NCBI GenBank assembly: GCA_040285745.1
Contig: JAUFOR010000004.1
Span: 620,001-684,000, forward strand
Length of the DNA: 64,000 bases
Reading direction: 5' to 3'
Source of the DNA: Barthelona sp. PCE
Taxonomy: Eukaryota
Shown here: positions 1,657 through 55,800 of the stretch, in pieces
How the letters are laid out: every line of letters begins with the position of its first letter
Numbering within the stretch: position 1 is the first letter of the stretch
Notes under the pieces: model-generated
The model's input: only the letters and a program-made list of their open reading frames with translations
What the model was told of the DNA's origin: nothing
Databases searched by the model: none
Translations under genes and position numbers: made by a program

Positions 1657-4374
1657 ATGGTGATCAAGGGGCAGAAAATCATCTGTGGACTGAGTTTCGA
1701 TACGGATTCAGACTCAGATGACGATTTCATTCCAGTAGTGAAGAAGGTTGAAACGAAACAAACGAAACCAGTTATTGTACGATCACCACCGGCTAGGATG
1801 GTGCCCATTCCAAGTGAACCTGTTACTGTTTCTTTAAAAAAGAAACCACAAGCACTTAAACGAAAAGCAAGTGCTGTTTCTCATCAAAAAAAGTCGGATC
1901 CAGTTGTGGTATCAATTCCAAAGCCGGCAATTAGTGAGCCCAAACAGGAAGAGATTACATGTTCAGGGATTTTTTCAAGTGATGGAACTAAGCGTCAAAA
2001 GACAACTGTGTTGCCTGAACAGTCGGGCAGTCTGTTCGACGGCGTGAGGATGCACGTTAGTAAGTCGTTCCACAACAACAACTACACATACAAACATATT
2101 AGAACATTCCTCAAGGGTTGTGGAGCAAAGATGCTAAAGAAAGCAACCAGGGCGTGTGATATCATATTATACAGCCCCAGTGACGAATTTGCAGACCGTT
2201 ATAAGAAGTTGACCGATACCCATTTCGATAATGTCGTTGATTTCATTCAATATACTCATGAGCGTGTTGATATCATGAATGCAGCGACCACAAAGCCAAC
2301 GTACGGTGTCCGGGTGAAGGCTTTTGGATCAACCTCTGTCAATCAGAAGAAGCTTAAAAAAGTGTTCTTTAAGCTTGGCATGCGTATGGTTGATGATGTT
2401 AAGGATGCTGATATCATCATGCTTGGTCAGATTGGGTCAGAAGACCGGATTTTGTTGGAGCGTATAAAAGGAAAGAAGGGGGTCAAAGATGATGATTTTA
2501 CTTCATTTATTGTTGGTACAGAGGAGAACATAGCTTCCAACATTGAGACGCTGCCGCCAATAGAGGCTGTGCTCAAGGGTGTGAGACGTGTTAAGCGAAA
2601 GGTAGAGAAGGTAGTTGCTGAAAAAACCAAAGTCAGTCTAGCAGGAGCCGGTACAGCTATTGCTAATGAGTCTGCCAGTGATCTATGGGTAGACAAGTAC
2701 CGCCCGATGCGAGCTAAGGATCTCATAGGAAATCCAACGTCAATTAGGAATTTCAAGCTCTGGTCTCTTTACTATGAGAAGGTGAGGCGGTGTATTAAGA
2801 AGGGACGTGATTTTAAAACGTCAAAATACTACAGGGAGTATCTCCAGGACGCAGGAAGACTGCGTATTGAGAGTTTTGCAGCAGATCAGTTCTTGTCCAA
2901 TTTTGAGTTCGATTGCTGTCTTCTCAGTGGCGCGCCGGGTATAGGAAAGACAAGCAGCGTGTACATGGCTGCGAAGGAGCTGGGTTTCGATATTGTAGAA
3001 TTCAACGCAAGTGATGTGCGATCGAAGAAGCAGATACAAGCCCTCTTTAGTGGCGGTCTCAACGCTGGTTCAGTCACGCACATTTTGGAGGAAGGAAGCA
3101 AAACCAAAAAGTCAGAGGATACTGTAAGGTCAAGGAAGCGGCTTATTCTTATGGATGAAGTTGACGGAATGTCGACTGGAGATCGTGGTGGTCTGCAGGA
3201 GGTTTTGAGGCAAGCAAAGAACAGTACGGTGCCTATTGCTCTCATTGCTAATGACATGTCGTCCTCCAAGATGCGCACTGCAGCACCAAAGGTGTATCAC
3301 CTGAAGTTCAGAAAGCCTGGCGTCGGCATTGTCGCTAAAAGACTGAAGGCGATATGTGCGCGTGAAAATGTTGTAATTGAGGACCAGCAGCTCATTGATT
3401 TGACTGAAAGTGCAAACTGCGATATTAGGCAATGTGTCAACACATTACACATGTTTGCTAAGGAACAGAAGAGACTCAGGAAGAAGCACGGAGCTAACAC
3501 TGATACCAGCCATTTGTTGGAGCCTGCCAAGGATCTTGATCTGGGTCCATTCGACGTCATCCCCATGCTGTTCAGCCCCATGCTTGGAGGGAAAATATCG
3601 CGATTCATGCAGTACTTTTGGGTTGACTATTCTCTTATGCCACACTTTGTTTTTGAGTGCTATAAGAATGCAGCTACAGATACATTGGACGATATGGAGG
3701 CGCTGGATGCGCTTGTGGACGCATCAAGCTCCATAGTTGATGGTGATCTTATTCATTCAACAATAGCAATGCAGAATTGGTCGCTGCTACCTGCCAGAGG
3801 TCTATGTGGTGCGGTGTATCCTGCACGTATTGTCGAAGGCGGTGTTCACGGTGCAGGATTCCCATCAGTATTGGGAAAGATATCATCGACGAACAAAAGG
3901 AAGAGGTTAATCAATGAGATTAATATGTCTGTTACTCAGACAGCGCATTCGACTCCACGTGACGTGAATTTGAATTATATGTCTCTTATGAGAAGAAAAT
4001 TCATCACAGGAATTTCAAATGCAATCACAGAAGAAGCTAAGGAAGTTGCCATTAGTGAATTAATTGAATTTTTGAATGCGTACCGTCTCGTTAAACATGA
4101 TTTTGAGGGATTAAATCTGCTCCAAGAGTTTGAAATGGGCAAATTTATTCCTAGTTATGAAGCTGTTGATACTCAGTTGAAACGGCGTATTACAACTCAA
4201 CTTTCAAGTCACTCAAGCGGTTCGAACTCGTTTAAGGATGGAGATACGTTGATTCTGAAGGGTAAATCACAGCTTGGAAAACGGCCGCCAAAGGAAAAGA
4301 CCAGAAAGACAACAAAGAAAAAAACAACAACAAGGAAGAAGAAGAGCAGAGGATTGGATAGCTTTTTTAAGTAA
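1657..4374 (+). CDS. RFC1: Replication factor C large subunit
   Basis: LWVDKYRP, Walker A GAPGIGKT, EFNASDVRS, Walker B MDEVDGM, DRGG, CDIRQ, RFC1 C-terminal helical domain. First ATG at 1657 (the ORF track uses TTG at 1633). Confidence 0.95.
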   Translation: MVIKGQKIICGLSFDTDSDSDDDFIPVVKKVETKQTKPVIVRSPPARMVPIPSEPVTVSLKKKPQALKRKASAVSHQKKSDPVVVSIPKPAISEPKQEEITCSGIFSSDGTKRQKTTVLPEQSGSLFDGVRMHVSKSFHNNNYTYKHIRTFLKGCGAKMLKKATRACDIILYSPSDEFADRYKKLTDTHFDNVVDFIQYTHERVDIMNAATTKPTYGVRVKAFGSTSVNQKKLKKVFFKLGMRMVDDVKDADIIMLGQIGSEDRILLERIKGKKGVKDDDFTSFIVGTEENIASNIETLPPIEAVLKGVRRVKRKVEKVVAEKTKVSLAGAGTAIANESASDLWVDKYRPMRAKDLIGNPTSIRNFKLWSLYYEKVRRCIKKGRDFKTSKYYREYLQDAGRLRIESFAADQFLSNFEFDCCLLSGAPGIGKTSSVYMAAKELGFDIVEFNASDVRSKKQIQALFSGGLNAGSVTHILEEGSKTKKSEDTVRSRKRLILMDEVDGMSTGDRGGLQEVLRQAKNSTVPIALIANDMSSSKMRTAAPKVYHLKFRKPGVGIVAKRLKAICARENVVIEDQQLIDLTESANCDIRQCVNTLHMFAKEQKRLRKKHGANTDTSHLLEPAKDLDLGPFDVIPMLFSPMLGGKISRFMQYFWVDYSLMPHFVFECYKNAATDTLDDMEALDALVDASSSIVDGDLIHSTIAMQNWSLLPARGLCGAVYPARIVEGGVHGAGFPSVLGKISSTNKRKRLINEINMSVTQTAHSTPRDVNLNYMSLMRRKFITGISNAITEEAKEVAISELIEFLNAYRLVKHDFEGLNLLQEFEMGKFIPSYEAVDTQLKRRITTQLSSHSSGSNSFKDGDTLILKGKSQLGKRPPKEKTRKTTKKKTTTRKKKSRGLDSFFK

Positions 4375-4382
4375 ATAATTGA

Positions 4383-4840
4383 GGCACGCTTGTGAATAAC
4401 ACGCTATTTCGTAGGAGTAAATCTACTGAGGAGTAGACACGCGGTCTTCCCTCTTGTACTCTGTGAGTACTTACATCATTTCTTTCTCCCCTTTTATTTT
4501 AAAGGTGACATACAGGCGCTAGCCTTCAGACTTTATACTTGAGGTAGTAAACAGCGGAGGGGGACGAAGCGAACCGTCATGTGTAGTAGGTGTCCGTAGG
4601 ACCCGATACGGTTTTTCTTACCTTTTTCAAAAAAAAAGGGTTTTAGGCCACTTCCCGGACGAAACACCCTCTACACGTGAAGGCGAGCCTTCCCACGTGA
4701 GCGTTCCCCGACGTCAATAAACCTACTTCAGTATAAAAAAAGGGCTCTAGAACAATTCTCAGTGCAAGCACAGCACTCGAGGGAGCTCGCAACTCCCGTA
4801 CAAGTGTCTAACTCCGAAGTAAATTCACAACCTCCTACGA
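4383..4840. mobile_element. Family-1 non-autonomous foldback element, interrupted by a family-2 insertion
   Basis: 4383-4503 plus 4736-4840 is the reverse complement of 22595-22820 with one substitution. Flanks differ between the copies. Confidence 0.85.
4504..4735. mobile_element. Family-2 foldback element (232 bp) nested in the family-1 element
   Basis: Absent from the 22595-22820 copy. 4504-4657 matches the reverse complement of 38540-38694. Inverted arms start TATACT at 4534 and end AGTATA at 4735. Confidence 0.85.
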
Positions 4841-5391
4841 ATCGGTGTAAGCATCTAGTTGTTTATTGCAGGAATCTAGTATTTGCAGGGTAACAAAAGC
4901 AATGTAATAAACCCGAACTTTATAGTTGAGAACAATGGTTTGTGCACAGTAAAATCAGCATTCTAGAAATTATGTCCCATAATACAAACTTTACCCACAA
5001 CAACAACAAAAAAATTTTCACCCCGTATTTCAAGGTCTTAGCCTGGTACTTCTGAGTTAAATGTTCTGTTTGGCTGTTTCTGTCTTCGAAAAAGATGGTA
5101 TCTTTTGAAGATTTAACTCTTTGAGAAATATTCAGTTTTTAAGCTGTTACCTTAATGCACGTTGTTTTCTCACACTTTAAATACAATTTTCGGTACATCT
5201 AAGCACTAATATGTTATTGTAGTATGAATAATATGAAAAACAGGTAAACAAATGGTGTAGGGTTTAATTTTTACAAAATACTTCTGAAAATGCATGTTTC
5301 TTGGCTTTAAAGTTCCAATGAGCCAATGTAAAATCTATAACCCTGTGCTTTCTGTTGTGAATCTTTTTCTTACCCTTTTCATCGAATAATT

Positions 5392-5986
5392 ATGCCTCGC
5401 AAAATAGTTCCCAGCATAAAATCATTAAAGGATCTTCAGTTGAAGTCTTTTGCAGCTCTTCTCTTATCATATCGTGTAAGTGGAACTAAGTCATTTATGA
5501 CAGCACACATGATTGATGAGCTCAGGTTATTCTTCCACATACCGTATGTTAGTCCCACGCGAACCACTTAATTTTTGCTTTTAACTTACATTTAGCTCCA
5601 CCACATACAGTAATCTTTTAGAGCAACTTGAGAATGAGCCTCTGTTAAAGGAACTTGAGAGGTTTTCTCAGAGCCATCTTAAGGATATTGAGAAGCAACC
5701 TCTACCTGTTCGTAATGATATTCACGAATTATTGCATGGTTTTATTCAGTTCAGTGATAAAGGCACCTATCCTCGCCGTTCCCTCCCTTCATCTTCATCA
5801 ACCATTTGCTTTTCGACAAATTCAGATATTCAGAGCTTGGTCAGTTATGCAAACACCATTTTTGGTCAAACTGTGGAAAAGAGTGATGTACGCAGAGCCC
5901 GTACTCTTATTGACAAGGAGTTAGAGAAGGTAGATGAAGAATTAAAGTTTACTCAACAGGGATATACCTTGCCTTCTTATGAGTAG
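5392..5986 (+). CDS. ENT (EMSY N-terminal) domain protein; exons 5392-5543 and 5596-5986
   Basis: Removing intron 5544-5595 joins MPRKIV..LQLKSFAALLLSYRVSG..IDELRLFFHIP to the frame of ORF 5732..5986. The helical pattern resembles the ENT domain. Confidence 0.7.
5544..5595 (+). other. Spliceosomal intron, 52 nt
   Basis: GTATGT...CTTACATTTAG; removal restores the reading frame. Confidence 0.85.
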
Positions 5987-7997: not shown

Positions 7998-9113
7998 TTT
8001 GGAAGTCGTTTTGGAATATGGTTAAAAAGACAAAAGCAAAAATTACGAGCTTACAAGCAATTCGAGTGCTTTTTATGGCTTTTTTGGGAAAATCATCCGC
8101 AATACAAGGTCTGAAATTCCCAAAAAATATAGTTTAACAGATCTATTGATCTAATGAGTTTTAAGATTTGTAAAGCTATGTCTCAAAGCTCCGGCGTGTT
8201 ACTGTTCGTCAATGTTTCTAAACGCTGGAAAACACCCAGAATTTAAGCATATAAAAAAATAATACTGTTTGCTTCACACTGCAGTCTTTTATTAACTTTT
8301 TGTACTTGAATTGGGGATAAAGCATACTTTTTAGGGTGACTTACCATTGCAATACCCAGAGCAACGATGACTAATTTGTGTTTGTGTGATTCTGTCCTCT
8401 TTCCAATGAAATTGTAACTCAGCTTCCATGGTAGGGAAGCTCATGCTTGCTACGGCAGGTTTTGCGCTGTAGTTTTAATGTTGAAAGCTTAATGTTTGTG
8501 TGTGTCATTTTTTCTTCATTCGTTGTTCTTATCCGTAGCAAAACAGGCGAATATTAATGGCAGAGGCTAAATAATGATCGGGAGTCTTAAATATGAATAC
8601 ATGCTTTTGTATATTTTATCACAGTCATGCATCACTTTTATCACTCATATTTAGTTGGATAAGCAGTAAGCTTCATGCCCTAAAACGACCGCAAGTGAAT
8701 TTTATTTCACTAAATCAGAGGTTTTTTTTTTGCTAACTACCATTAAGTTTCAGGACTAGAAACAAAGATAGCGTATGGAATACATGCAATAGTCATCTGT
8801 GACTAAACAATAACTCCTGAAAAATTAAATTTGAGAAGTTGTTTTCCAAAATTTCTTTTTTTTTAGCTTTTAAACAATATACGTCGCGAAAACAGCTTCA
8901 ATTGAGCGTTCCTATCCGCAAAACGACAATGCCGTCAGACGTACCTCTTCTTGTGGTTTTTGTGGCTAAATCTGCGTGGTTTATAGTCAGCGAGTAGAAA
9001 TTTGTATGGTGCGGACATATCCGGTGAAAATCCATGGTTTGTGGTTCATTTAGACTAGAATGAGGTAAAGTATCAACAAAGGTATATTTTATTTTTTCTC
9101 TATTATCAGTCAT

Positions 9114-20901: not shown

Positions 20902-21435
20902 TTGGGTGATATTTCGTAAAGTAGTTTTATAGTAGGTAATTCTTTTACAATCCTGCGGATATTTTCCCGCGAATACCTCAAAAACTAAAATTTTTTGGCA
21001 AAAGACATGGAACTAGTTTGCCTGATTTAAAATTTCTTTTTGACTCACCTTGACTTTCTTCTTTTGATTGTTTGAATGTGAATTTGGCAGGATTCTTGGT
21101 CTAATATGTGTCAAACATCACATAACTTTCATACACGCAGATACAGTGAACAGGCACAACTAATAGAACGGTTTATTTCGCTTTTCGACTTACAAAGAGG
21201 CATGAGCCTATGTCATAGGACGAATAAATTACCTGAAGTTCAATAAAAGAGAGAAAAAGGGAATTGACCGATTCTAAATCCTACCTCCTCACCCTCTATT
21301 TGAATATTCTATTCGCCTCTGTCACTGTCATAACTGTATATAGTGTATCCGTGGAGCAATGTAATACATCACAATTTGACATTTGAAGTGTTATTTCCTT
21401 TTTCACTTTATTCTTCTCATTAAAGTTTAAAAACA

Positions 21436-22494
21436 ATGAGCGAAGAGTTTGTAGGACACACGCCGCTAACAACTGAATGGAGTTTTTACTTCAACAAACC
21501 AAGCAAAAGTGGGTTTATTTTAGAGATATTTAAGAAGCACTGTATCGTGCAAGACCTGTATACGAGTTAACTCATGGTAATTAAAAGTACTTAACAAAAG
21601 AAAGAAAATATTTTCAGTTAACTTTGTTAAATTGCTTTGCTACTGGTTTTAAATCTTTGAGACAGTCTGCTTCTTTAGTACCTCCACATATTAAGTACCA
21701 TCTAACTTTTAGGACACGTACGAGGCAAGGGTCTTAACTACTCCAAGTGGGAATGCACAAAGGTCTATACTATGCATAGTGTTGAGGCATTTTGGGGAAT
21801 CCAAAAGGCACTCATATCACCAGGAAGTGTTTCTGATCTCACATTATATTTGTTCCGTAATGATATTAAGCCAGAGTGGGAAAATGAGTTCAATCGTCAG
21901 GGTGGAGACTTCAGATTTGAGTGGCAGCGTAAAATTCACTTCGTTAAGAAGCCAGGAGGCAAGGTACCATCAACAGTCGAAAAACCTAACGGTATTGATG
22001 CTCACGTATTTGATGAGCTTTGGTTACACGCCATGCTTGTTGCAATTGGCGAAAGTGCTGCTTTTAATCATCGTATTACTGGTTTAGCATGTCAGGTTCG
22101 TTCTAATTGCTATCGTATTACCATTTGGACTTGTTCTACCGATGAGTCTGAGATGAGGAGCCTCGGAAACAGCTTCCACGAGACTTTTATTAATGCTGGA
22201 GTGCCCCCTGAACGGTATAATTCCAATCCATCATTCACATCTGTTGCTGAACGTATTCGTGCAGCAAACCATGGTGGTGAACCCAGAGCACTGTTCAAGA
22301 TGGATGTACGCCGTCGTGGACAACAACACAGAAATGTATCTCTCAGAGCCAATAATAATCCGCCATTAATTCCTTCAGGAGTTCCACAACGTACCAATAA
22401 CAAAAAACGAAGGAATGTATCCCAATTATCTGTTGAAAGGAGTGCTAAAAATACAACTCCAAAAACTGAAGAAGAGGAAGAAGCAACGGAATAG
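21436..22494 (+). CDS. eIF4E: Cap-binding translation initiation factor; exons 21436-21508 and 21713-22494
   Basis: Exon 1 supplies HTPLTTEWSFYF; exon 2 has SVEAFW, LFRNDIKPEWE, NRQGG, RITIW. Confidence 0.92.
21509..21712 (+). other. Spliceosomal intron, 204 nt, self-complementary
   Basis: GTGGGT...CTAACTTTTAG. It contains an in-frame stop, and removal gives a full eIF4E. Confidence 0.8.
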
Positions 22495-22594
22495 TTTTTC
22501 AAATGTATAGTTTATAATTATATTTTATACAAACTGGATTACACATTTAATGATTTTTTAATACTAGTTTATCGCGCAATAAATTTCATTCTTA

Positions 22595-22820
22595 TCGTAG
22601 GAGGTTGTAAATTTACTTCGGAGTTAGACACTTGTACGGGAGTTGCGAGCTCCCTCGAGTGCTGTGCTTGCACTGAGAATTGTTCTAGAGCCCTTTTTTT
22701 TTAAAATAAAAGGGGAGAAAGAAATGATGTAAGTACTCACAGAGTACAAGAGGGAAGACCGCGTGTCTACTCCTCAGTAGATTTACTCCTACGAAATAGC
22801 GTGTTATTCACAAGCGTGCC
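22595..22820. mobile_element. Family-1 foldback element, uninterrupted copy (226 bp)
   Basis: Reverse complement of 4383-4503 plus 4736-4840; lies between the convergent eIF4E and USP stops. Confidence 0.85.
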
Positions 22821-22858
22821 ATATCACATTTACACATTTTATCGTTTATCACCAATAT

Positions 22859-25558
22859 TTAGATACTGTTTGCAAAATAATTAATGATATCTTCAGAAAA
22901 TATTGTCTTAAATCGAGCAAGAATATCACTACTGTTATAGATTAAACCAAGTTTAGCTTTTAATCCAATAACTATATTATGACGAGTAACTTGCGAGCTG
23001 AGACTTTGTTGACCTAATTGCCATAATATACGTAAATTTTGACGGCCTTCACGGTCATAGAGACCAAATTCTTGTCCAAGTGCATTTATACTAGCATCTT
23101 GAATCGAAGCTAAATCGCGTTGTGCAACAAATTCAAACAATTCGCTCTCTGGACTCAATGTGGTTGCTGACATAAGAATAGCGCATGTTAAATCAATGAT
23201 ATCATCCTGAATTGTGCGAAGTTTCAAGATACAGGCATGATTCTGTAGAGCTGGGTCAGTTTCAATAACGATTGTTTCTACTTCTTTGAGCAAACGTGAG
23301 AAAACTGAACGAATATCAACATTTTCTGATTCTGCACTCTCAAATAAGTGTGAAATCATATTAGTTGCAAATACTAAAGCTGATTGCATATCACACGTTA
23401 ACTCACACAAAACACCTAATTTATCAATAGGTACTCTGTCCTGCATCATCGAAGTGAACATACTGATATCTCTCTGACATAACTTTGTAAACTGCAAGAA
23501 TATTTTGATTGTTTCCAGTTTTGCTTCAATACTTTGGGTTTCACTAACCATACTTGATACAACTTGCAACACACAAACATGATAAAATCGAATCGTTTCG
23601 TTGTAAAAAGTATCGATTCTTTGGTAATATGTCAGGTAAGGACTTTGAATATTGGCAATAAAATCTCCAGTGGGGAAAATTGATTCAAACGCTTCATCCG
23701 TAATACCTTGCTTCTCAAATCGCTCAAGAATGATGCTCTTCACAACAAGTAACAAATCTTCACGATAGTTGTGACTTACTCTCTGTTTATGACAGTGCTT
23801 AGCGATGCTCAACAGTATTGCGTTCTTTACCTCAAATATACCGAACAAGAGCATCGATGTTGGTCCGCTGTCGGTGAACTGCGCAAAAGCTGGGTGTAAT
23901 GGTTTTGTACTGATTTCTGAAAAGGCAACGATTTGATCTAATTTTGAGATAAGCGACTGACCAAACTGACGGTACACCCTTGTTGATTCAGGCGTGGAAG
24001 ATGTGACAAGACTCCAAGGTAGATCGGCGATCTTGAGCTCGACTTCTTCCACGTATGGTAAAATATGATCAGGAAGCTCATCAAGGGCAGGACGCTTCAA
24101 GTCATTGACTGTTCCCTTGCGGGAATAAAACACGACCTTGACTGTCTCACCCTTACACTGTCCGCTCAGAAGAGTCTCTACATCTATCTGATCAACGGTT
24201 TTAACACGTTCATCATCGAACTTTACCCAATCATCTCCTATACGAATCAACGTATACCAATGGCCACCGTACTGCACGGATCCACTGTGGACCCACAGTC
24301 CCCAGAGGATATAAGAGCAATCGTCGTTGATGAGCGATGGTGGTTTGGGAGATTCGTCGATCTCCTCTTCAATCAATGAATCGTCCGAGTCGACCAACGA
24401 AGTGGCGCTTTCTGAGCGTTGTGGAGCCTCTTCAAGGAACGTAGAGTGCGGCTGGGCAACGAAATCCATTAATAACGATATAATATCGCTGAATGTGAGG
24501 GTGTCAAAGTTGAGATCCAAAAGCGACAGTGCGCATATCCGACGCATCCTCTCAACTATGAAACTCTCCAGCGCAGACGCAACCTCGATTACCGTGCCTG
24601 CTGCACTCTCATGACCTGTGCTAATGAGGTGCTGGCTAACATCTCTGAAAGCAGAAAGTCGTTGTGTGATAGAAAAATCCGGAGCAATACCCAAAGAGCT
24701 CATCTCCAACACGATCTCATCAAGTAGTGCCTTTCGCTCCAACTCTATGGCACGCTTTGACTGTAGTGCCTTCATGTAACCTGAAAAATGCTCATCACTG
24801 AGACTGTTATAACATAACCCATCAAGGTTCATCTTGAGCGGTACGGTGAACTTCTGCTTTGACAGCTCGCCCTGTTGGATAACATGCTCGAGCGTTATTG
24901 ACAGTGTGCTTGGTAACGAAGAAAAGAAAACGTAACGGTTATTTGTCACGTGAGCTGATTCTAGCATTGCAGCTGGTAGGTCACTGGTGTTTGTGTATAT
25001 TATATAAAATATTCCAGAGAAGTCACGTTGTGAACAAATATTTTCAGGTTTGATTATCTGATTAAAAGGGTCAAAATTATTCTTCATAACAACTTCGCTT
25101 TGATTATAATGAAACAAACTCTCTAAGTCAATTTTTGGTTCAAGATATTTTAGGAAGATGTTAAAAAATTCAGTTACATCCTCTTGTTCATGATCGAATA
25201 AATTATTCGTCTCAAGAATTTGAGTCAACTTTTGAGGAGTTACAAAGTTGTATGGAGATATCATGAGTTCGATAAAAACCTTTTGTATTAATGAAACTGT
25301 ATATAAAACATTGTCTCCACCTCTATGAGCTTCTCTGGTATCAATATCTAGAATACGACGTCTGCTCTCAATATTATAAAATAAAAGCTGTAGAATAGTG
25401 CTCAGATAGCACGAATTTCCGGTGTTACTAAGCCCACAAGGTAAATTTTGATCTGATTTGATACTTGGTATTCTAACAGGTCGTTTCTGCTTTTTAAGAC
25501 TTTCATAAGCAGCCCTCTGTGCTGCGTAATCCGTGATTACAACGCCAAAATTATTCAT
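22859..25558 (-). CDS. Ubiquitin-specific protease (peptidase C19)
   Basis: Cys box GLSNTGNSCY, EQEDVTEF, His box VHSG...GGHW, WVKFDD. Confidence 0.92.
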   Translation of the reverse strand: MNNFGVVITDYAAQRAAYESLKKQKRPVRIPSIKSDQNLPCGLSNTGNSCYLSTILQLLFYNIESRRRILDIDTREAHRGGDNVLYTVSLIQKVFIELMISPYNFVTPQKLTQILETNNLFDHEQEDVTEFFNIFLKYLEPKIDLESLFHYNQSEVVMKNNFDPFNQIIKPENICSQRDFSGIFYIIYTNTSDLPAAMLESAHVTNNRYVFFSSLPSTLSITLEHVIQQGELSKQKFTVPLKMNLDGLCYNSLSDEHFSGYMKALQSKRAIELERKALLDEIVLEMSSLGIAPDFSITQRLSAFRDVSQHLISTGHESAAGTVIEVASALESFIVERMRRICALSLLDLNFDTLTFSDIISLLMDFVAQPHSTFLEEAPQRSESATSLVDSDDSLIEEEIDESPKPPSLINDDCSYILWGLWVHSGSVQYGGHWYTLIRIGDDWVKFDDERVKTVDQIDVETLLSGQCKGETVKVVFYSRKGTVNDLKRPALDELPDHILPYVEEVELKIADLPWSLVTSSTPESTRVYRQFGQSLISKLDQIVAFSEISTKPLHPAFAQFTDSGPTSMLLFGIFEVKNAILLSIAKHCHKQRVSHNYREDLLLVVKSIILERFEKQGITDEAFESIFPTGDFIANIQSPYLTYYQRIDTFYNETIRFYHVCVLQVVSSMVSETQSIEAKLETIKIFLQFTKLCQRDISMFTSMMQDRVPIDKLGVLCELTCDMQSALVFATNMISHLFESAESENVDIRSVFSRLLKEVETIVIETDPALQNHACILKLRTIQDDIIDLTCAILMSATTLSPESELFEFVAQRDLASIQDASINALGQEFGLYDREGRQNLRILWQLGQQSLSSQVTRHNIVIGLKAKLGLIYNSSDILARFKTIFSEDIINYFANSI

Positions 25559-32976: not shown

Positions 32977-33718
32977 AGTTGAATAGTTGGTATTTTGTAG
33001 TTTAAATTGGAAAAAAGGAAGTGTAGATTGAACAAAAGGTGGAAATTGTGTTTGTATGACCCTCAAAAGTACGAAGAGGAGTAAAAAAGTGAAACCATCA
33101 CCAAAAGTTTATTTCAAGAATCTTTAAAGATAAAAAATTACGAAAATAAGCAATATAGCCACATCTAACAGATGAAAAGGCTAAAGACCCTCACATAATG
33201 CAGATATCTGTTTACATAGGTTGAGCTTCTAAAAGTAAATTTTTCACGTCTAACATGCTTAAATCGTCCACAAAGCAACAGAGGAATGATTTTAAACTAT
33301 AGAATCGGGCTTTTTGAGAAATCCTTTACATTGCACACTAAAAGAGTTAGTAAACATGCTTAGTGGCACATATATATCACTTAAAGCATGCTCCACTTGA
33401 ATTTATCAGAGAAATCCGTTTGAGGGAAGAAAACGCTTTTTTTACCTATTTTACCCTAACAACACCGTTTATTATCCAGTAATCTTGCTTAAAGCAGTCC
33501 ATTAACACTATTTAGGAAAGGAATAAGATGAACTCGAAGTAATTATGCATTTTTAATGATTTTTTTTTCCCCATAAAAATAAAGTATTTAAGCTTTCTTT
33601 CAACCATTATTAGATGTACCGGCCCAAAAACTCCCTTAAAGACTGCTAGCAGTGAGGGAATCTCAATATTAGTTTGTTAAATTTTTTCTCTCCTACTTCA
33701 TTTACTATCAACATTAAC

Positions 33719-35631: not shown

Positions 35632-37132
35632 ATGAACATTTCTGAAACAGCGCGAGCGTATCTAAGCGAACCAGGGGCAGATGGTATGTCACTGTACCAG
35701 CACCTTTACCGAACTTTCCTATATTTGGCAGAAAACAACTTCTCTGATCCATATGCTTCGTTTGAGACCGCTTCTCAAGAGGTCAAAGCCTCTTACGGTC
35801 TTAGCAAAAGCGGAGGATCGTTTGGAGAACTGTCAGATGAGAAGATCGAAGCATTTATTAAGAAATGCGAATTACTTGCCGTATGCATATTTTTAGCATT
35901 GAAAATATTCTAACCTTTAGTTGCAACCAACCCCTACGATTCCAGAAACTCTTCCACTTTTGAAACAAGAGAAGGTCATTACGGAACTTATTGATACATT
36001 TTCATTAGCCAGATCAGTTGGTAAGGGCCTCATGAACGAAGAAGTGCTCTCCTTAACATTAAGCATGAAGAAATTTGTTCGTTTTCATGATGTTAATCAG
36101 GTACGCTTTGTTGGTAAGATTTTTACTTCTATTAATCCCTACTATATCCTTGAGGTGAAGCCTAAGGAGCAGGGTGAGGCTTTTGAGAAGCCTGCACCAA
36201 TTAAGCCAGGTGAAACTAAGCCACCTGTACCTAAAGAAGATCCTGGTATTGGCTGCAACAAATTCGTCTATTATGTCAGCACTGAGCTCACTGGTGAATG
36301 GATCAAGCTTCCTCACACCACACCACAATTGATTCAAGCTGCCAGAGGTTATCTTTCCTTTTTCACAGGAGAATTAGAAAAGAATTTATCTCCATCATTT
36401 CCTGGTCTTGAAAAGGATTTCTTGAGAGCCCAGCTTTCACGTATTGTCCACGCCACTACAGTATGTCCAAGTGATTCCTTGATTGAAGTTGAGATCGAAG
36501 AAGAGGAAGAGGAGGATGAAGATGAGGAAAAAATAACTGACCCCGATTATGAACAGAACCCTGACTTTGAAGGTTTTGAGATTCCTGAAGGCTTTGATGA
36601 TCCTGAAACTATGAATGATGAAGACGGTCCTATGGTTAATATCACACATGCCAGAATGGAAATTCTACCTCAAGGACGTTGTTTCTTTTATGCTACCAAG
36701 TACAAGGAGCCCGATGAGGACGAGGAAGAAGAAGAAGATGTTATTGAACCAGAAGAGGAAGAGCCAGAAGAAGGCAAAGAAATTTTCACCCCTTGTTCAC
36801 AAGACGAAGGTATCAAAGGTGATCCTGCTTGGTGTATGCGTGTATGCCAATCACAGTCTACATCCTCACCTGTTGTTGTTACATCTAATCTTTGGAACGG
36901 TGCTTTTGCCGTTGTACATGGTTCTAATACATTGAATTGTTACATTGGATGGGGTCAAAAAGCACAGAAGGTTGCTTTCTGTCCTGCACCTCTCCCTGCA
37001 ATGACAAAGATGACCTGGCTTCCCAGTGAAGAGAAGGATCCCACTGTTCGTGAAGAGCAAGATTATGAAGATGCCCTTCGTGAGCGTGCTGAGAAGGAGA
37101 TTGATTCCGAGGAAGAAGAAGAGGAAGATTAA
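35632..37132 (+). CDS. RSPH4: Radial spoke head protein RSP4/6 family; exons 35632-35880 and 35921-37132
   Basis: SLYQHL, RFVGKIF, EDPGIGCNKFVYYV, WIKLP, LRAQLSRI, SNLWNGA, YIGWG. Confidence 0.92.
35881..35920 (+). other. Spliceosomal intron, 40 nt
   Basis: GTATGC...CTAACCTTTAG, phase 0; joins ORFs 35632 and 35921. Confidence 0.9.
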
Positions 37133-38539: not shown

Positions 38540-38694
38540 CGGGAAGTGGCCTAAAACCTTTTTCTTTTTGAAAAAGGTAAGAAAAACCGTATCGGGTCCT
38601 ACGGACACCTACTACACATGACGGTTCGCTTCGTCCCCCTCCGCTGTTTACTACCTCAAGTATAAAGTCTGAAGGCTAGCGCCTGTATGTCACC
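38540..38694. mobile_element. Family-2 foldback element, copy truncated at one end (155 bp)
   Basis: Reverse complement of 4504-4657, differing only in the central T tract. Confidence 0.85.
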
Positions 38695-39056
38695 CTATCA
38701 ATATTGAAATACTATAAACTTTCAGATGTATGGACTTCCAAACTTAATTCTCTGTAAAGAGTCTGTTTACTCTCCCTAACTACCCGTTAACATGGATGAG
38801 ACCCTGGAAGAAAATCATGCATCACAGCTTCTTTGATCCTTAACAACATAAATTTCAATGTAAAAAAATTGATGTTTGAAAAGACTAGATTTCCTATCTA
38901 AATTAGAATTTTGCATCTAGTAAAATCGTAAAACTGGATCTTTGTGAGTTTAATATCTCCCTCAGCACGTGTATTGTACAAAATGAAGAAACTGAAAGCG
39001 TTAAAGTAACTCTCTCCCTATTCTTCTTACCGTTTCTTTTTACAACACGTAATCAC

Positions 39057-42803: not shown

Positions 42804-44673
42804 CTAAAGTTTCCAGACAATGACAGCTCCATCATTACCACCAGAAACAATGTATTTACCATTAGGTGTGAAACGTACAACGTTAATACCTTCTGAATGG
42901 GCAGAACCAACATATTTAATGTCAGCACTATCGTAATCAATGACATAAACGTTACTATCTGTTCCACCAAAGACAAAATCTTCTTCAGTGTGATCAAAAT
43001 GCAACGAGGTCAAAGCGGTTGGTACCTTGAGCTCTCTAATAATAGATCCGTTGTAAGCATCATAATATATCAGTCTCTGATCGCTTGTTCCACAAACAAT
43101 ATGACCCTCTGTAGCACCGTAAGAAACAGTCTCAAAGAAAGTTGATTCTAACATAGTGATGCGACGAGACAATCTGGTCATATCCCAGACAACACAAGAT
43201 CCATCTGCAGAAGTTGAGACGGCCTCCAATTCATCAGAACGAAGTGTGAGATCGGTGATTCTTCCTGAATGTTCCTTTAATTCAGCAACAAAAGTTTGTA
43301 CATGACGAGATACTCTCCAAACACGAACAGAACCCTTTGAACCGCCTGAAAGCAACAAATCACCTGAATTAAATCCTGCGCATACTGCAGTGACTTCCTC
43401 ATGGGCATCATTGATTGTCCAAAGAAGTTTACCACTCTTGGGACCGAACGCACGAATCTTTCCATCAGACCAGCCGGAGATGATTGCGGAACTGTCACAT
43501 GTGAACGTGAGACAGAGACAACGCTCATTAGGTACCATGATACGAATCAATTCTGCACCAGTATGTAAGTTGCACAACCTGATCTGTTCAGCACATGAGG
43601 TAGCAAAGATATCACTAAAACCAGGAGCGAAAGCAATTCCACTGATAGCAGTAGTGTTGGAAGTTAATGTGAGCTCAGGCTCAAATTCCATTCTTGTCGT
43701 TGCGTATTGAACAGGAAGGGTGTAGATGTTACCAATCGATGTACCGACAATGATCTTGTTGCCTAACTGCAAAATATTATGGACTCCACCATATACATTC
43801 AGTGTCTTTGATGCAATACGCTTGTTTGTTTGCATATTAACTACTGATATTTCACCTGCGCCTGATCCGATAACGAGCTTACCATCAATGTGATGAATGG
43901 AAGTAATACCCTTGGCAAGTTTCGCCTTTTGAATTGCAGTTGAAGATAGTACCTTTGTCTCAACGTTGACTTTGAAAAGATCACCTGTTCTTGTACCAAG
44001 GTAAAGATAACGATCAGCTGCGTCGAGATAACAACATAAGTAGTCACGGACGTTGCTGCCCAATTGAACAGCCTCACCACGAAGCTTATGGTTGTTCTTA
44101 TCGAATGACCAGTGAATAATACGTTTGTTACCATATGTAAGGAACTTGTGACAGTCTTCATTGAAGAATGTAATACCGCGCATGAGTTCACCACCAACAG
44201 AATTACCAGCAATAGCTTGATAAGTGTTTAGATCCCAAACAGCACAATATAAGTCGTCTCTACCGCCAACTGTTGCGATAAACTCATCGTTGTGGCTGAA
44301 TGCGATGCTCTTAACATCACCCTTGTGCAAAGAAAGACGAGTAATCTCGGTTCCAGTTTCGAAATCCCAAATGATAACATCCGCGGTGAATCCAATGTGT
44401 GTCTTCTGGCCACTCGCAATGAGAGTACCTGTCTTTGACAAAGCCATACATGAAATTTCGTTATCATGACCCTTTAGCATTTTGATTTCATTTGTGATGG
44501 TGTTCTTGATGATGATGTTAGCTCCCACGGGATAAATGAGGTGTGTCTGATCCGGGTGAGCAATGGTTGACTTCGGAACGTATCCTAGGTGTAAGTAAAT
44601 TGAATCATCGCGTTTATGCAAAGAATTTCATACCGCTGTACCCAATTAAGTGCTTGATTGCAATAGGTTCCAT
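42804..44673 (-). CDS. CFAP52: Cilia- and flagella-associated WD40 protein; exons 44673-44634 and 44584-42804
   Basis: Spliced N-terminus MEPIAIKHLIGYSGYVPK..HPD, SGQKTHIGFTAD, SGWSDGKIRAFGPKSG. Confidence 0.93.
44585..44633 (-). other. Spliceosomal intron, 49 nt
   Basis: GTATGA...CTTACACCTAG; removal restores the conserved N-terminus. Confidence 0.88.
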
Positions 44674-48969: not shown

Positions 48970-49820
48970 TCGATAAAGGAGGTGTAGATAAGAATTACAA
49001 AATCGAGTTTAAGCTTATACAAAATATGATACTTGAATATGATATACACTATATTTACATCCCCGAAGTGTGTGTACAAATAAAGTAAACACATCAAGAA
49101 CAGAGGATCACTTTTTCGATACTCTATTCATATTATTATGTCAATTTTGTTGAAATCGTTGTTAAAATGCGATATACATCCCTAATCTTAACCAGTATTC
49201 TCTAATTAATGTTTTTGTAGGAAGTTATGAAAAATCATGACTTTGAAGTTGTACTGTGGAACATAAATCAATTTATAGTGTAAAACTTTGGTGTACTTTA
49301 TACATTTTGTGACCTGTGAATAGATTTCAAAACATACTGTTACAATCCATTTTTTCATCATATACACATTTTTTTTAATTTTTGCAACTGTTTTCTTTAT
49401 TTTTAGATGGTATTATACAATGCGCATGTATATATAGTGCTTTAAAAGGAAGTATCCATATTTTTTCAAACATGTTAATTTTAAGGGCTATATTTAGTTG
49501 CAGTGATGAGCGTACATGTAGGGCTGTTGTTTTATATGTTTGGAGTTGCAAAAGAGAATTTTTTTTTGAGAGGAACATAATTCTATTTCATATTCGTGTT
49601 TTTGATAGTGTAAACGATGTAAAATCGAATGAATCATCAGTTAAGCAGCAGCCTTTTTCAAGATTTGATAGGCATTAGTAAATTTGTTTTTTCACCCAAA
49701 TTCAAAGGTTGGGACATTGTAAACATTACCAAAGAGCCTCATGTGCACCAAACAGCCCATTCCACCAACGTAGATATTTCAGCTAAAATTGGAAATCGAA
49801 TTCTCTTTTCTTTCTTTTAT

Positions 49821-52800
49821 ATGATGCTAAAGAATTTAATTCTCATTTCGCTTCTTCTTTTTGCAACAGTTACTGCTGTTGGAAACATTGGAAATGAAAT
49901 TGATATTCCTGACGTAGATATTCCTGACGTAGACTATGAAGATGAACATCATATCGTTCTTCCTGTTGGTCCTGGTATCGTCATGCCAAATATTTCCGAC
50001 TTTGATCACATCAAGATGCCTGATGCAGATATGCTAAAGAATATTACTGATTCTTTGTTCTCTCTCTTGATTCCCGGTCAGTTTAACTTTATTCAGGTCG
50101 CTGTAACCATTGAACCTGCTTTTGTTGAAGAAGTCAGTGCTGCCCTTGGTGAGTATGGCTCTATGGCCTACTATCTTGGAAAGCAACGCTTCCTTATTGA
50201 TGTCCCACAAATGCTTATGCCTTTGCTTGATACTCTCCCCATTGTTGATTTTGAGCCTTTAGATCCCAATGAGAAGATTTCTAATCTTTTAGCTAGCAAC
50301 GGTGAGTCTGACATCACAAAGCTTTCTGTTTTGGTTTCCCGTACCGCTGGTGCTAAGAAGCTTGCCGAATATTACGGTACTCTTATCAGCAACCCTAGCG
50401 TCAAGTTTACTGCCATTTCTCAGATGCAAATGATCGTCACCTTCCCTAAGGACATTTCTGAATCTGTCATTTCTTTCCTTTCTAAGCAGGCTGGTACTGT
50501 TTTCATTCAGCCAGCTGTGGAGATTGAGAAGAAAAACATGAAATCTTTTGAAGCAATTGTTGGTACTCAGACTCCTAATATGTTTGGTCTTGAGGGCTAC
50601 GACGGTTCAACTGAGATCATTGGTGTTTCTGACAATGGTCTTGATACTGATCACGAGTTCTTTGCTGATGCTTCCCGCCCCGTTCCTTTCGATACCATTG
50701 ATTCTAATCACAGAAAGATCATTGCTTACTTCACTGAGTTCGGTTCAAACACTTCCATGGCTCACGGTACTCACGTTTGTGGTACTGTTGCTGGTATTAG
50801 CGATAATTCCACTGATGAAATCAACAAGTTCCACGGTATGGCTCCTGGTGCAAAGATTGCCTTTGCCTCAGTTGCTGCACCCGATGGTAAGTTCACCGAT
50901 TTCTCAGTGTATGACGTCTCCCAGAGACTCTATGATGCTGGTGCCCGTATTCACTCCATGTCCTGGGGTGGACACTTCGGTGGTGTCGTTGGTATTGGCG
51001 CTTATTCTAACAATGATTATGAAGCTGATCTTTTCGCTTACGAACACCCTGAAATGGTTATGGTTGCCGCTGCTGGTAACGATGGTCACAATCAAAAATC
51101 CACAACTGGTTCACCCGCCAATGCCATTAACGTTTTGGCTGTTGGTGCTACTGTTGGTCCCCAAGAATCATGGGATGCCTTCTTTGTTGATTCTCCTTGT
51201 CAATTTGACCGTGAGAAGACTATTGAAGCTTCCTGTGATGCAATCTCTTTCTTAACTGCTGAGCTTAATCAGAACCCCATCTGTCATCAGCTTCCTACTA
51301 CTCTCATGGGTATTTACGGTACTCACGAGTCCACTTCCTGTAAGGAAGATCTCACCGCTTACTGTGGTTATCTAACTAACTATGCTGGTTCTGGTGAGGA
51401 TCTTTACAACGATCTCTGTTCTGCCAATGATTACTATTGCTCTCAATGCCCTTCATATGGTTACAAACACCAAGGTGATGAGTACAATGCTGCAGTCTTC
51501 AGCTCAACTGGTCCCACTCTCGATGGCCGTCTTAAGCCCGAGATTAGTGCTCACGGTATGCTTCGTTCTGCTCGTTGTGGTGCTGCATGCGGTGACATTA
51601 GCGAAGACAAACTTGTCTATATGCCTGGTACTTCCATGGCTACACCTGCCGTTTCTGGTACTATTGCTCTTGTTCGTCAATACATGAAAGAGAAGATGAG
51701 CATTGCCAACCCCAAGGCACGTGATGTCAAGGCAATTCTCATGTCACTCACTCGTCCTATCTGGACTAATCAATTCGATAAAGGCATGGATACCGGTTAT
51801 GGTGAGGTCCAAGTTGCTGGTCTCAACCGCACTATGCCTCTCTTGAAGGAGATTGTTCTCGCTAACGAGGGTGATTATCATCCCGTCTGTGTCCGTGCCA
51901 AGTTGGTCAACAGCTCTATGGGTGGCAGTCAAGAAGCAAACTTTGCAATTTCTATTGTCTACACCAACCCTCCTCGCGTCCCTCTTGATCCTATGTACGA
52001 CGGTCACATTGTTGACATGTCTTACTTTGGAGACAACCTCGCCTGGGAGACATCTCACACCAAGTATGATAAGGATGTTCATCTTTCACCTATCAAGCAC
52101 TTCCAAGAAAATACATATCTGGATGAGTACAACAGTGAGCAGGTTTACTGTTTCACTGTCAACGCTACTCGTCTTATCTCATCTAACCTTGCTGTCTCTG
52201 TCGCTGCCGCCATTACCGTCGAGCCTCAGTACGATGCTATCTTTGAACTCGAGTGGGTTTCACCCGAGCAGCTGAAGTGTCCCAACAACTGTTCCAACCA
52301 TGGTTATTGTAACCAGGGTGTTTGCATGTGCGATGATGAGCACACTGCCAACGATTGTTCCATAGTGAAGGATGCACAGTATTACTGTATGGAAAGCTGT
52401 CTCAACGGTGAGTGTATTGAAACAACCAAGGTCGCTAACGTTTCTGAGTGGATTTGTAAGTGTTACGAACCTTACCAGTACAAGTATGAGTACTGGGGTG
52501 ACTTCTGTCAATTTGATCGATATGGTGTTTATCCCAACGGTGAAAACAACTACGGTCTCAGAGAGTTTGTTATCAATGGTACTACCCTCAATGACACTCA
52601 AGGTATGCAGTTTGCTGTCGATGGTAAGCCCATGATCAGCCGTGGTATTGTTATGCCATTGTCTGAGTACTGGAACGTATCTGCTAAGATTCAAGAACTC
52701 GCTGGCGCCATTGCTAGTGAAGTTCCTCACCTTCTTCAGTCCCTTCTCCAGGGTCAAAACACTTCCATCCTTGCTATTCAGAGCTATGTTGATCGCATCC

Positions 52801-55800
52801 TTGCTGAAGCTAATATTACTAAGTACTACATCTGGGAGATGCCTAAGGGCTCTGCTATGTTCCATCTGACTCCTGAGGACTTTGCTATTGACCGCAAGTG
52901 GTTCGTTCTTCCTTTCGATACCATTGATGTCACTGCTCGTGATTACTATCCTGATCAGTGTGAATGTATCGATACTGGTTTCTGTAACGATATGCCAGGT
53001 TATCCTGACCGTATTAACATGTGTAAGGATTGCTTACAAACTGAGCACGTCTACTTTGCTGAAGAACTTTGCGCTGTTGAAATGTGTCCTTTCAACTGTA
53101 GTGGCAACGGTGTCTGTAACATGACTTCAATGACATGTAACTGTGATACCGGTTTCCACGGTCTCCGTTGTGAGTCTATGAATCCCCCTATCCCTTGTGA
53201 ATTTGGCACAATATTTAACGAAACATGTGTTTGTGATTCGACTCACACTGGCCCCGCTTGTATTGTTCCTATTGTTCCTATTAATGTTGAAGGTATTAAT
53301 GATTCTGAAGGAATCGCTTCATATACTCTTGAGCAATTAGGTAAACCCAAGGTCTATGAGGTTTTCGAAGTCACTATCAACAACAGCATGGCCAATAATT
53401 CTATTATTGAGGTATCCATCGAAGGTACCAACGTTAAGTATGATGGTGAATATGACTTCGCCACATCTACCCTTCCTTACGCTGTAATGACTGAAGCCCT
53501 TCCTGATATGAAATTCTTGACTGATGCCAAGCCTTTCATCGATCTTCCTTCATCTCAGTATGAGATTATGAAGAAGTTCTATCCCCTTCTTGAGAGAATC
53601 ATGGCTGGTGATCAATCAGCTTATGAAGACATCATGAAGCTTGTTAACCCCAAGCAACTTGAGGATCTCCAAATGACCATTGATAAGATTGTCAAGGGCT
53701 TCAACATGACTGGTCAGGAACCTCTCTCACTTGGTATTTCTCATGTTTATCCCATCATGACACCTCTCTCTTCTGAGAAGCGTTCTATGATCCTTACCCG
53801 CCCTCTCATGGCTGGTGAGAAGATCTTTGTTACCGTCTTCAACGCTGATTGGTTGCGTGGTGCTTCTGGCAATGTTGTTGTTACCGTCAAGGATATGATG
53901 AACACTTGTCAACGTGCTAACATGAGTGATATCATCTATGCTTCTTGTAACGGCACTCATTGGGTCACTGATAAGATTCAGGCTCCTACAATGATGATGT
54001 CCAACAACAGTAACATTATTCAGGATCTTGGTTGGTATCCCTTCGATTCAAGTCTTGTTATCCGCGCCTTTGATTTGAATACCCCTGTTTGGTTTAGTTA
54101 CCAATCACGTATGAAGGTCACTGAGGAGCAACTTAACTTGACTGAGTTTGAACGCTCAGAGATGACTCCATATGCTCTCACTCAAATTGATATGGCCAAG
54201 ACTATCTCACAGCTTCCCGTTCAAGGTTTGGTTATCTACACATGTAATGCTCAAAACATTACTCGTATTGTTAACCCCTTCGGTGAAACTCTCATGCCTT
54301 GTCACGGTGGTGAGGTCAACTTGATCTTTACTCCTTTTTCATCAATGATCCCTGCCGAGTTCAACATCTCCACCGAGGCTTATGTTGATACTTGTGACTA
54401 CGATATGTGTTCCAACAACTTTGGTATGTGTGTTCGTGGCAAGTGCGAGTGTGGTGGTGCTATGGTTCTTATTGAAGATAACGTTTGTTCATTCGATCCA
54501 GCTCTCGTCCACGATCTTTCTATTGGTGATGAAGCCAAAGCATTTAACACAAGCATGGGTGGTATTACTTTCAAGATTGCCCGTCCTGAATTTGAAATGT
54601 TCACTATGGGTCTTGTCACATTCACTAACATGACCGGATATCCTCTTGAATCCATTGGTAACTCTCTTGTTTCTGTCTGGATTGATGATGCCAACAAGAC
54701 AAGCATTGATGCATATCCCGCCCCCATCATGCCTCAGGAGAGTATCACATATTTGAGCATCTCCCCTGGTGTTGACATGAGAGGCAACTGGACATATATT
54801 TACATTACGCTCACTAGCAAGTTTGCTGTTCCCACTTTCCCCATGATTGGTGAGATGCCTCTTCCTCAGTGGCCTCAAGAGATCTACGCTCGCACCTACG
54901 CTAACCCCGCTTGTCCCATGTTCTGTACTGGACATGGTGTCTGTAACGGAACAGGTGTTTGTGAGTGTTTCTTCGGCTGGGATGGACCTGCTTGTAATGA
55001 GCCAAAGTATCACACTTCTACTTACGATGAGGACTCTTTGTCATTCATCTCTGAAGGTGAAATGGAGATCAACAGCGGTTTCCCCGCTTACACCCGCGTC
55101 AACGTTGGTGATATGTCTCTGAGCTCCAACCAAGATGTTGTTATCATTCCCACATCCGATATGCCTGGTGTTATCGTCATTCCTTTCGCTTCCACTGAAG
55201 CTCCTTCTCCTACTGGCTTCCCTACTGCTGCTAATCTCTTTGTTCCCACTGGTATGGGTCCTTTGGTTGTTGATTCTGAACGTATCTTGTTCAAGCCCAA
55301 CACCACTGAGGCTTACACAGGTGATCTATACATTGGATTCGTTGCTATTACTATGGGTGGACTTCCTATGCCTATGAACGAGGATTACGTTACTCCTTCT
55401 CTTCCTGGCACAGGTGAGGTTGATCCCTCCGTCTTCTTACATATGCTTAAGGAGCTTCGTGGCGAGAACGGTACTATCATCCGTGGTAACTTCTCTGTTT
55501 CCACTCGTGTTGCTCCTAAGCGTGACTGCGGTCGTGGTTCTTGGAGCTACGTTGAGGATAAGTGTTCCTGTCAGTTCGGTTACACTGGTGAGCAGTGTAA
55601 CAACATTGACGCTATCCTGGTTGATCTGAACTCCGGTATGGAGGTTAACGTTAACAAGTCTAAGCAGTACATTATGTTCGTTTTCGATACTAGTGACTAC
55701 GATGGTGGTATCATTGTCAACCTTGACGTTTCCACCAAGTACTCTGCTGTCCTCATTAACGCTGATGGTCCTCCTTCATTTGACAACTTCATGCGTGTTC

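Follow-up and report, generated by a model that had tools for sequence, protein, structure and literature searches.

A zipper-like stem predicted in the long eIF4E intron of the free-living metamonad Barthelona sp. PCE

Results

The eIF4E gene and its long intron

The metamonad Barthelona sp. PCE lives freely and has a genome of 10.2 Mb and 40.3% G+C, the smallest reported among free-living eukaryotes, and the barthelonids have been placed in the BaSk clade as the sister group to Fornicata (PMC11316075). According to the same genome report, its gene models were built by GeneMark-ET/AUGUSTUS under the guidance of RNA-seq and then passed through a PASA check (PMC11316075). Our analysis concerns one 64-kb stretch of this genome, hereafter the window, and all the positions below are counted from its first letter. 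The window is dense in genes and contains long uninterrupted frames. For example, one open frame on the + strand (49629-59318) runs through 3229 codons without interruption, and it combines a G+C content of 0.44-0.45, higher than the rest of the window, with a strong negative AT skew. On the - strand the genes can be packed tightly, as seen where the stop codon of an upstream gene (28978-28976) is followed by the next start codon (28919) after only ~56 nt.

The gene for the translation initiation factor eIF4E lies on the + strand of the window and consists of two exons and one intron, with the following features.

21436..21508, + strand: eIF4E exon 1, starting with the ATG at 21436; 24 codons plus 1 base, encoding a conserved N-terminal segment of the PLxxxWxFxF type
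21509..21712, + strand: spliceosomal intron of eIF4E; 204 nt, phase 1, 31% G+C, GTGGGT...TCTAACTTTTAG
21509..21514, + strand: 5' splice site of this intron, GTGGGT
21701..21712, + strand: 12-mer TCTAACTTTTAG, in which branch point and 3' splice site are putatively fused; the branch A is presumed to be 21705, and the intron ends 7 nt further on
21713..22494, + strand: eIF4E exon 2, closing with the stop codon TAG (22492-22494)

In an initial annotation of this DNA, the intron was placed at 21509-21712 with a length of 204 nt, against 37-52 nt for four other introns, and these coordinates are confirmed here: the coding sequence spliced from exon 1 and exon 2 gives a translation that is identical, letter by letter, to the annotated 284-aa protein P0001. 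Translated, the long open frame 21715-22491 agrees at 100% identity with a 284-aa database entry, 'hypothetical protein PCE1_002331 [Barthelona sp. PCE]'. The spliced protein matches the Pfam family IF4E (PF01652) with 93.6 bits, above the curated cut-off of 28.7, and covers profile positions 1-147 of 158, while exon 2 alone reaches 83.8 bits and its match begins only at profile position 23. Moreover, 33 distinct sequences of the eIF4E family with solved structures match the spliced protein, with alignments that cross the junction at residue 25 uninterrupted; the top match among them is 6fbz_A (E 1.6e-20, query residues 4-98). A protein search with eIF4E exon 2 returned the query itself as the sole match (1 of 171 candidates), and a metagenome scan with the eIF4E protein yielded 435 pattern matches, 0 of which were confirmed.

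As for the boundaries of the intron, the frame stays open with 13 GT..AG pairs, of which 3 end at the branch/3' motif. Among the three, the pair with the donor at 21509 is the only one that has a G at position +5 and a T at +6 and retains the conserved residues of the protein. The alternative donor at 21482 was rejected as it deletes conserved residues, and so was that at 21566 (GTTAAC), which adds 19 residues and carries no G at +5. The junction 21508/21713 is accepted on the strength of its agreement with both the RNA-seq-guided annotation and the homology to eIF4E. The branch A at 21705 takes its place from the motif and is referred to as presumed.

Short introns and the shared 3' motif

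Alongside the eIF4E intron, the window holds a class of short introns of 37, 40, 49 and 52 nt, i.e. four introns within one 64-kb stretch.

5544..5595, + strand: short intron of 52 nt, GTATGT...ACTTACATTTAG; splicing it out gives exactly the annotated protein P0002 of 180 aa
31808..31844, - strand: short intron of 37 nt, GTATGT...TCTCATATTTAG; its removal yields a protein that agrees in full with the annotated P0003 of 969 aa
35881..35920, + strand: short intron of 40 nt in a radial-spoke-head gene, GTATGC...TCTAACCTTTAG; proposed from frame, start codon and motif, with the Pfam domain Radial_spoke in exon 2
44585..44633, - strand: short intron of 49 nt in a WD40 gene, GTATGA...ACTTACACCTAG; proposed from frame, start codon and motif, with WD40 domains in exon 2
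5584-5595, 21701-21712 and 35909-35920, + strand, and 31819-31808 and 44596-44585, - strand: the 12-mer branch/3' motifs of the five introns

The donors of the four short introns are GTATGT (twice), GTATGC and GTATGA, so that the GTGGGT of the eIF4E intron is the sole one of the five that departs from GTATGN; the initial annotation had rightly called it atypical. At the other end all the five introns agree, since a 12-mer with the frame N-C-T-N-A-Y-N-N-N-T-A-G closes every one of them (5/5). Judging from these sequences, the branch site and the 3' splice site are united in this 12-mer, here in a barthelonid, a fusion that has been described for Giardia and Trichomonas (PMC6679479). Counted up to the branch A that the motif suggests, the short introns have 29, 32, 41 and 44 nt ahead of it.

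A scan of the 64-kb window for further long introns, using loose donor and acceptor patterns together with coding context, produced no credible candidate; such a scan is non-exhaustive and is blind to introns in UTRs. Separately, four acceptor-like copies of the branch/3' motif were noticed at 8644-8654 and 49396-49406 on the + strand and at 33350-33338 and 33239-33229 on the - strand, all of them within stretches that have no long open frame (8021-9069, 49008-49623 and 33108-33656). These motifs may mark UTR introns or small spliced genes that are unannotated, and one pair of them could bound an intron-like stretch of ~100 nt.

A long-range stem between the two ends of the eIF4E intron

The secondary structure predicted for the eIF4E intron contains one outer stem, whose arms lie near the two ends of the intron and enclose a long interior.

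21523..21547, + strand: 5' arm of the outer (zipper) stem, seen in the MFE structure, the centroid structure and the pair probabilities
21658..21684, + strand: 3' arm of the outer (zipper) stem, seen in the MFE structure, the centroid structure and the pair probabilities; inverted repeat I1
21548..21657, + strand: hairpin interior with the small helices AAGACC/GGTTTT, TTAACAAA/TTTGTTAA and GAAAATATTTTC, structured no more than expected by chance

The initial annotation had proposed about 21 pairs for this stem, and the prediction bears it out with 21-22 pairs that are present in the centroid as well as in the MFE structure; their probabilities range over 0.45-0.99 and are in most cases at least 0.8. 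The arms measure 24-25 nt on the 5' side and 26-27 nt on the 3' side, corresponding to positions +15 to +39 of the intron and -47 to -21 relative to the presumed branch A; an ungapped part of 17 nt has 82% complementarity, and the two arms alone form a duplex of -18.5 kcal/mol. The stem sets in 14 nt past the donor and finishes 20 nt ahead of the branch A at 21705. When the splice signals are held unpaired, the intron folds into one exterior helix and leaves 14 + 28 = 42 nt unpaired. Duplexes computed for the antisense strand (-28.1, -36.4 and -37.8 kcal/mol) are as good as or better than those of the sense strand; since the antisense strand pairs equally well, the signal is that of an inverted repeat at the DNA level, which bears no RNA-specific mark. 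A search of Rfam gave 0 matches, either for the 64-kb window at the gathering score or for 21400-22900 at E up to 1, and a search for tRNAs came back negative.

Long-range pairing against chance controls

Folding long introns against shuffled controls had been suggested in the initial annotation. Applied to the eIF4E intron, this control gives a divided answer, in which the long-range pairing turns out to be rare, while the overall stability and the residual length are ordinary. For the pairing, we used a statistic specified in advance, namely the energy of the duplex between the 5' half and the 3' half of the intron. It amounts to -34.6 kcal/mol, against -22.9 +/- 4.0 in shuffles, and is reached by only 16 of 3000 shuffles and, in an independent run, by 10 of 1000. 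Natural sequence tells the same, as 6 of the 768 windows of 204 nt with G+C 0.26-0.36 reach this energy, the windows overlapping the intron itself being included in the count. Without matching of G+C the number rises to 612 of 3190 natural windows, because richer sequence pairs more strongly. The contrast sharpens when the comparison is confined to the terminal thirds of 61 nt, a split that was picked after the stem had been seen: -26.8 against -14.6 +/- 3.6 kcal/mol, which is reached in 4 of 3000 shuffles and, among natural windows, in 2 of 754. The long-range pairing of the outer stem is beyond chance. A further point in favour of the stem is that the intron, when constrained, forms one exterior helix, as only 378 of 1000 shuffles do.

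Other properties of the fold are ordinary. The MFE of the whole intron is -36.9 against -35.4 +/- 3.9 in shuffles (z -0.39), with 64 of 200 shuffles as stable, and the constrained MFE is equalled by 11.4% of 1000 shuffles. As a positive control, a fold-back repeat downstream of eIF4E stands out clearly in the same MFE test, with z -4.64 and 0 of 200 shuffles. The exterior nucleotides left unpaired in shuffles have a median of 33 (5-95%: 22-51) and number 42 or fewer in 82.4% of the 1000; in Boltzmann samples the path from donor to acceptor is 40.3 for the intron against 35.2 for shuffles, of which 325 of 400 are equally short or shorter. The pairing predicted between the odd donor and 21698-21701 proved ordinary as well, the donor being paired to the same extent in 197 of 300 shuffles.

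These controls change the weight of the 42 nt to a large extent. The figure itself, 14 + 28, is reproduced as the initial annotation gave it; however, because shuffles fold to the same or a shorter distance, its match with the 37-52 nt of the short introns is weightless by itself, and a fold back to short-intron length can be ascribed to almost any such sequence of 204 nt, as shuffles leave equally few nucleotides. The length-constrained spliceosome that had been argued from the 42 nt thus loses this support. Moreover, with shuffled paths equally short, the stem is, in silico, unnecessary for bringing the ends of the intron together.

The interior fares no better. Its 112 nt (21547-21658) are matched by shuffles in duplex energy (385 of 2000), in palindrome score (977 of 2000) and in MFE (246 of 500), so the inner helices, which the initial annotation had listed, carry no weight. 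For the same reason, a decayed palindrome spanning the whole hairpin of 162 nt was rejected. All of the non-random signal is confined to the terminal arms.

Fold-back repeats in the neighbourhood

The fold-back repeat used above as the positive control belongs to an intergenic family in the window. One copy of ~230 nt lies at 22596-22825 on the + strand, 100 nt downstream of eIF4E, and folds with -79.3 kcal/mol. Another, at 4383-4840 in the opposite orientation, is 98-100% identical to it and carries in addition a central insert of ~233 nt, of which ~165 nt are found again, at 95%, at 38540-38703. The family has neither an Rfam nor a tRNA match, the two Rfam hits obtained for 4300-4900 (E 4.5 and 4.9) being at chance level. 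Its members may represent a mobile fold-back element or clustered genes for small RNAs.

Discussion

How a zipper stem might serve a long intron

With its two arms at the ends and an interior unrelated to them, the eIF4E intron is best read as a GT-AG spliceosomal intron of the ordinary type that carries a zipper stem; we hold this reading, drawn from one intron and from thermodynamic prediction, to be about as likely as not. The same holds for the view that the stem is required for efficient splicing. In detail, the pairing of the arms would loop out ~110 nt of unrelated sequence, so that, once the 3' arm has been transcribed, ~34 nt of single strand and the end of one helix would lie between the donor and the fused branch/3' site. 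These 34 nt before the branch A would be comparable to the 29-44 nt in the four short introns, and, by analogy with Giardia, Spironucleus, Trichomonas and yeast RPS17B, a spliceosome built for short introns of fixed geometry might thereby join the two ends of a long one. As to its origin, the most economical assumption would be an insertion bounded by inverted repeats into an intron of 42 nt, an insertion that could be tolerated because its ends pair. The formation of the stem in vivo, the dependence of splicing on it and the origin by insertion are all what we infer from the arrangement.

The arrangement itself is compatible with more than one history, since two terminal arms and an unrelated interior fit a zipper stem and an insertion with terminal inverted repeats alike, and the two readings combine naturally. 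A foldback insertion had already been considered as the source of the stem; the arms fit a terminal-inverted-repeat insertion, and the interior shows no sign of a decayed palindrome.

Other explanations of the arms

It is still necessary to ask whether the pairing plays any role in splicing at all. The arms could be a neutral relic, left by an element of ~162 bp with terminal inverted repeats of 24-26 bp which entered a 42-nt intron and has been decaying there since. Such a history would account for much of what is seen: arms around an unrelated interior are the layout of a MITE too, the pairing is equal on both strands as expected of an inverted repeat at the DNA level, the removal of 21523-21684 leaves an intron of 42 nt, inside the range of 37-52, and the fold-back family 100 nt downstream of eIF4E (z -4.64) demonstrates that such DNA exists in this genome. 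However, the 64-kb window has no second copy of either the arms or the interior, the longest other match being 17 nt; no target-site duplication is visible at 21522/21523 and 21684/21685; and the intron hairpin has no sequence in common with the neighbouring fold-back family. Moreover, a streamlined genome of 10.2-Mb (the size as given in PMC11316075) would presumably be expected to shed useless intron DNA. We therefore consider a relic without any splicing role rather unlikely, although it deserves to be kept in mind.

An inverted repeat that arose by chance in an AT-rich intron would be another account, and it is in line with the ordinary values of the MFE, the inner helices and the residual length, as well as with the fact that the stem was first spotted by eye in a single intron. 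It is nevertheless improbable, for the half-against-half statistic was specified beforehand and its value occurs in just 0.5-1% of shuffles and 0.8% of GC-matched natural windows; and with this intron the sole long one found in the window, no selection among introns took place. Similarly, we give little credence to the idea that the hairpin has some other job, either as an intron-hosted small RNA (snoRNA-like, or a Dicer-substrate hairpin) or as a switch for the splicing or the retention of the intron in eIF4E. Although such a thought is invited by the length of the hairpin and by its place in the gene of a translation factor, inside the one long intron found, and a 2023 study of Giardia mentions stable intron RNAs as possible (PMC10711314), the Rfam searches came back empty for the window and for the surroundings of the intron alike, a C/D box pair was not seen on reading the intron sequence, and the structure of the interior is no better than chance.

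Significance for metamonad introns

If the zipper stem is functional, the barthelonids would become the third metamonad lineage that fits long introns to a short-intron spliceosome by self-pairing, and a free-living one, which would bear on the question of an ancestral versus a convergent constraint as well as on the origin of trans-spliced introns. A wider proposal can be formulated, though we hold it as doubtful: barthelonids might share with diplomonads and parabasalids a spliceosome of short span, under which long introns persist only if their ends zip together, and the eIF4E intron would then be one of 42 nt that was enlarged by a self-pairing insertion, an intermediate of the type from which split, trans-spliced introns like those of Giardia emerge. 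Were this short-span reading true, the trait would be either ancestral to much of Metamonada or a repeated outcome of streamlining, and not a consequence of parasitism. Judged by the titles and abstracts listed, a literature search found no published work on barthelonid introns; the genome paper mentions 'intron' once, in its methods (PMC11316075), and its supplements may hold intron statistics.

Comparison with known systems

That long introns in Giardia and Spironucleus carry stems of this kind, and that such stems are a proposed route to trans-splicing, had been put forward as known in the initial annotation, and both are indeed stated by Hudson et al. 2019. In that article the stems in long introns of Giardia, Spironucleus and Trichomonas are described by prediction; they bring the splice sites to a single-stranded distance of 25-45 nt, the values given being 35-45 nt for Giardia, 41 nt for S. 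salmonicida and 25-44 nt for T. vaginalis, and they are proposed as a route to trans-spliced introns (PMC6679479). A re-analysis of Giardia in 2023 makes the same argument on intron stems (PMC10711314). Since the single-stranded distance after folding, as used in this literature, is reproduced by shuffles in our case, we suggest relying on statistics of long-range complementarity, on covariation or on mutation instead.

Compared with the long cis-introns of Giardia lamblia, Spironucleus and Trichomonas vaginalis, the eIF4E intron of Barthelona is alike in being GT-AG, in having its putative branch site and its 3' splice site fused at a constant spacing, in occurring beside a uniform class of short introns and in having a non-random internal stem that leaves 42 nt, a distance which shuffles reproduce. 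It differs from them in coming from a free-living barthelonid lineage, in its donor GTGGGT, in a looped-out region of ~110 nt with structure at chance level, and in being a single, predicted example. With the trans-spliced introns of Giardia it has in common an extended complementarity between the 5' and the 3' parts, and a break in the loop would leave halves able to pair, as in the scheme proposed in PMC6679479. Unlike those split introns, it is contiguous, and its stem is short and interrupted, with 21-22 pairs and -18.5 kcal/mol.

The resemblance to insertions of the MITE or fold-back kind lies in the size of ~162 bp, the AT-rich composition, the terminal inverted repeats, imperfect and 24-26 bp long, and the unrelated interior, while the intron departs from them in showing neither a target-site duplication nor a second copy in 64 kb. 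Its layout also recalls the zipper stems of yeast in RPS17B/RP51B, RPS6B and APE2 (Rogic et al. 2008, PMC2536676), where the arms are likewise near the donor and the branch point and the interior is arbitrary. According to that paper, the layout in RPS17B was established by mutation, the stems are conserved among sensu stricto species, and their proposed effect is a shorter structural distance to the branch point (PMC2536676); the Barthelona stem by comparison is a prediction. Yeast, moreover, has no branch site fused to the 3' splice site, unlike Barthelona. The design of the zipper stem has thus been described already, and what is new here is the lineage and the life style in which it is met.
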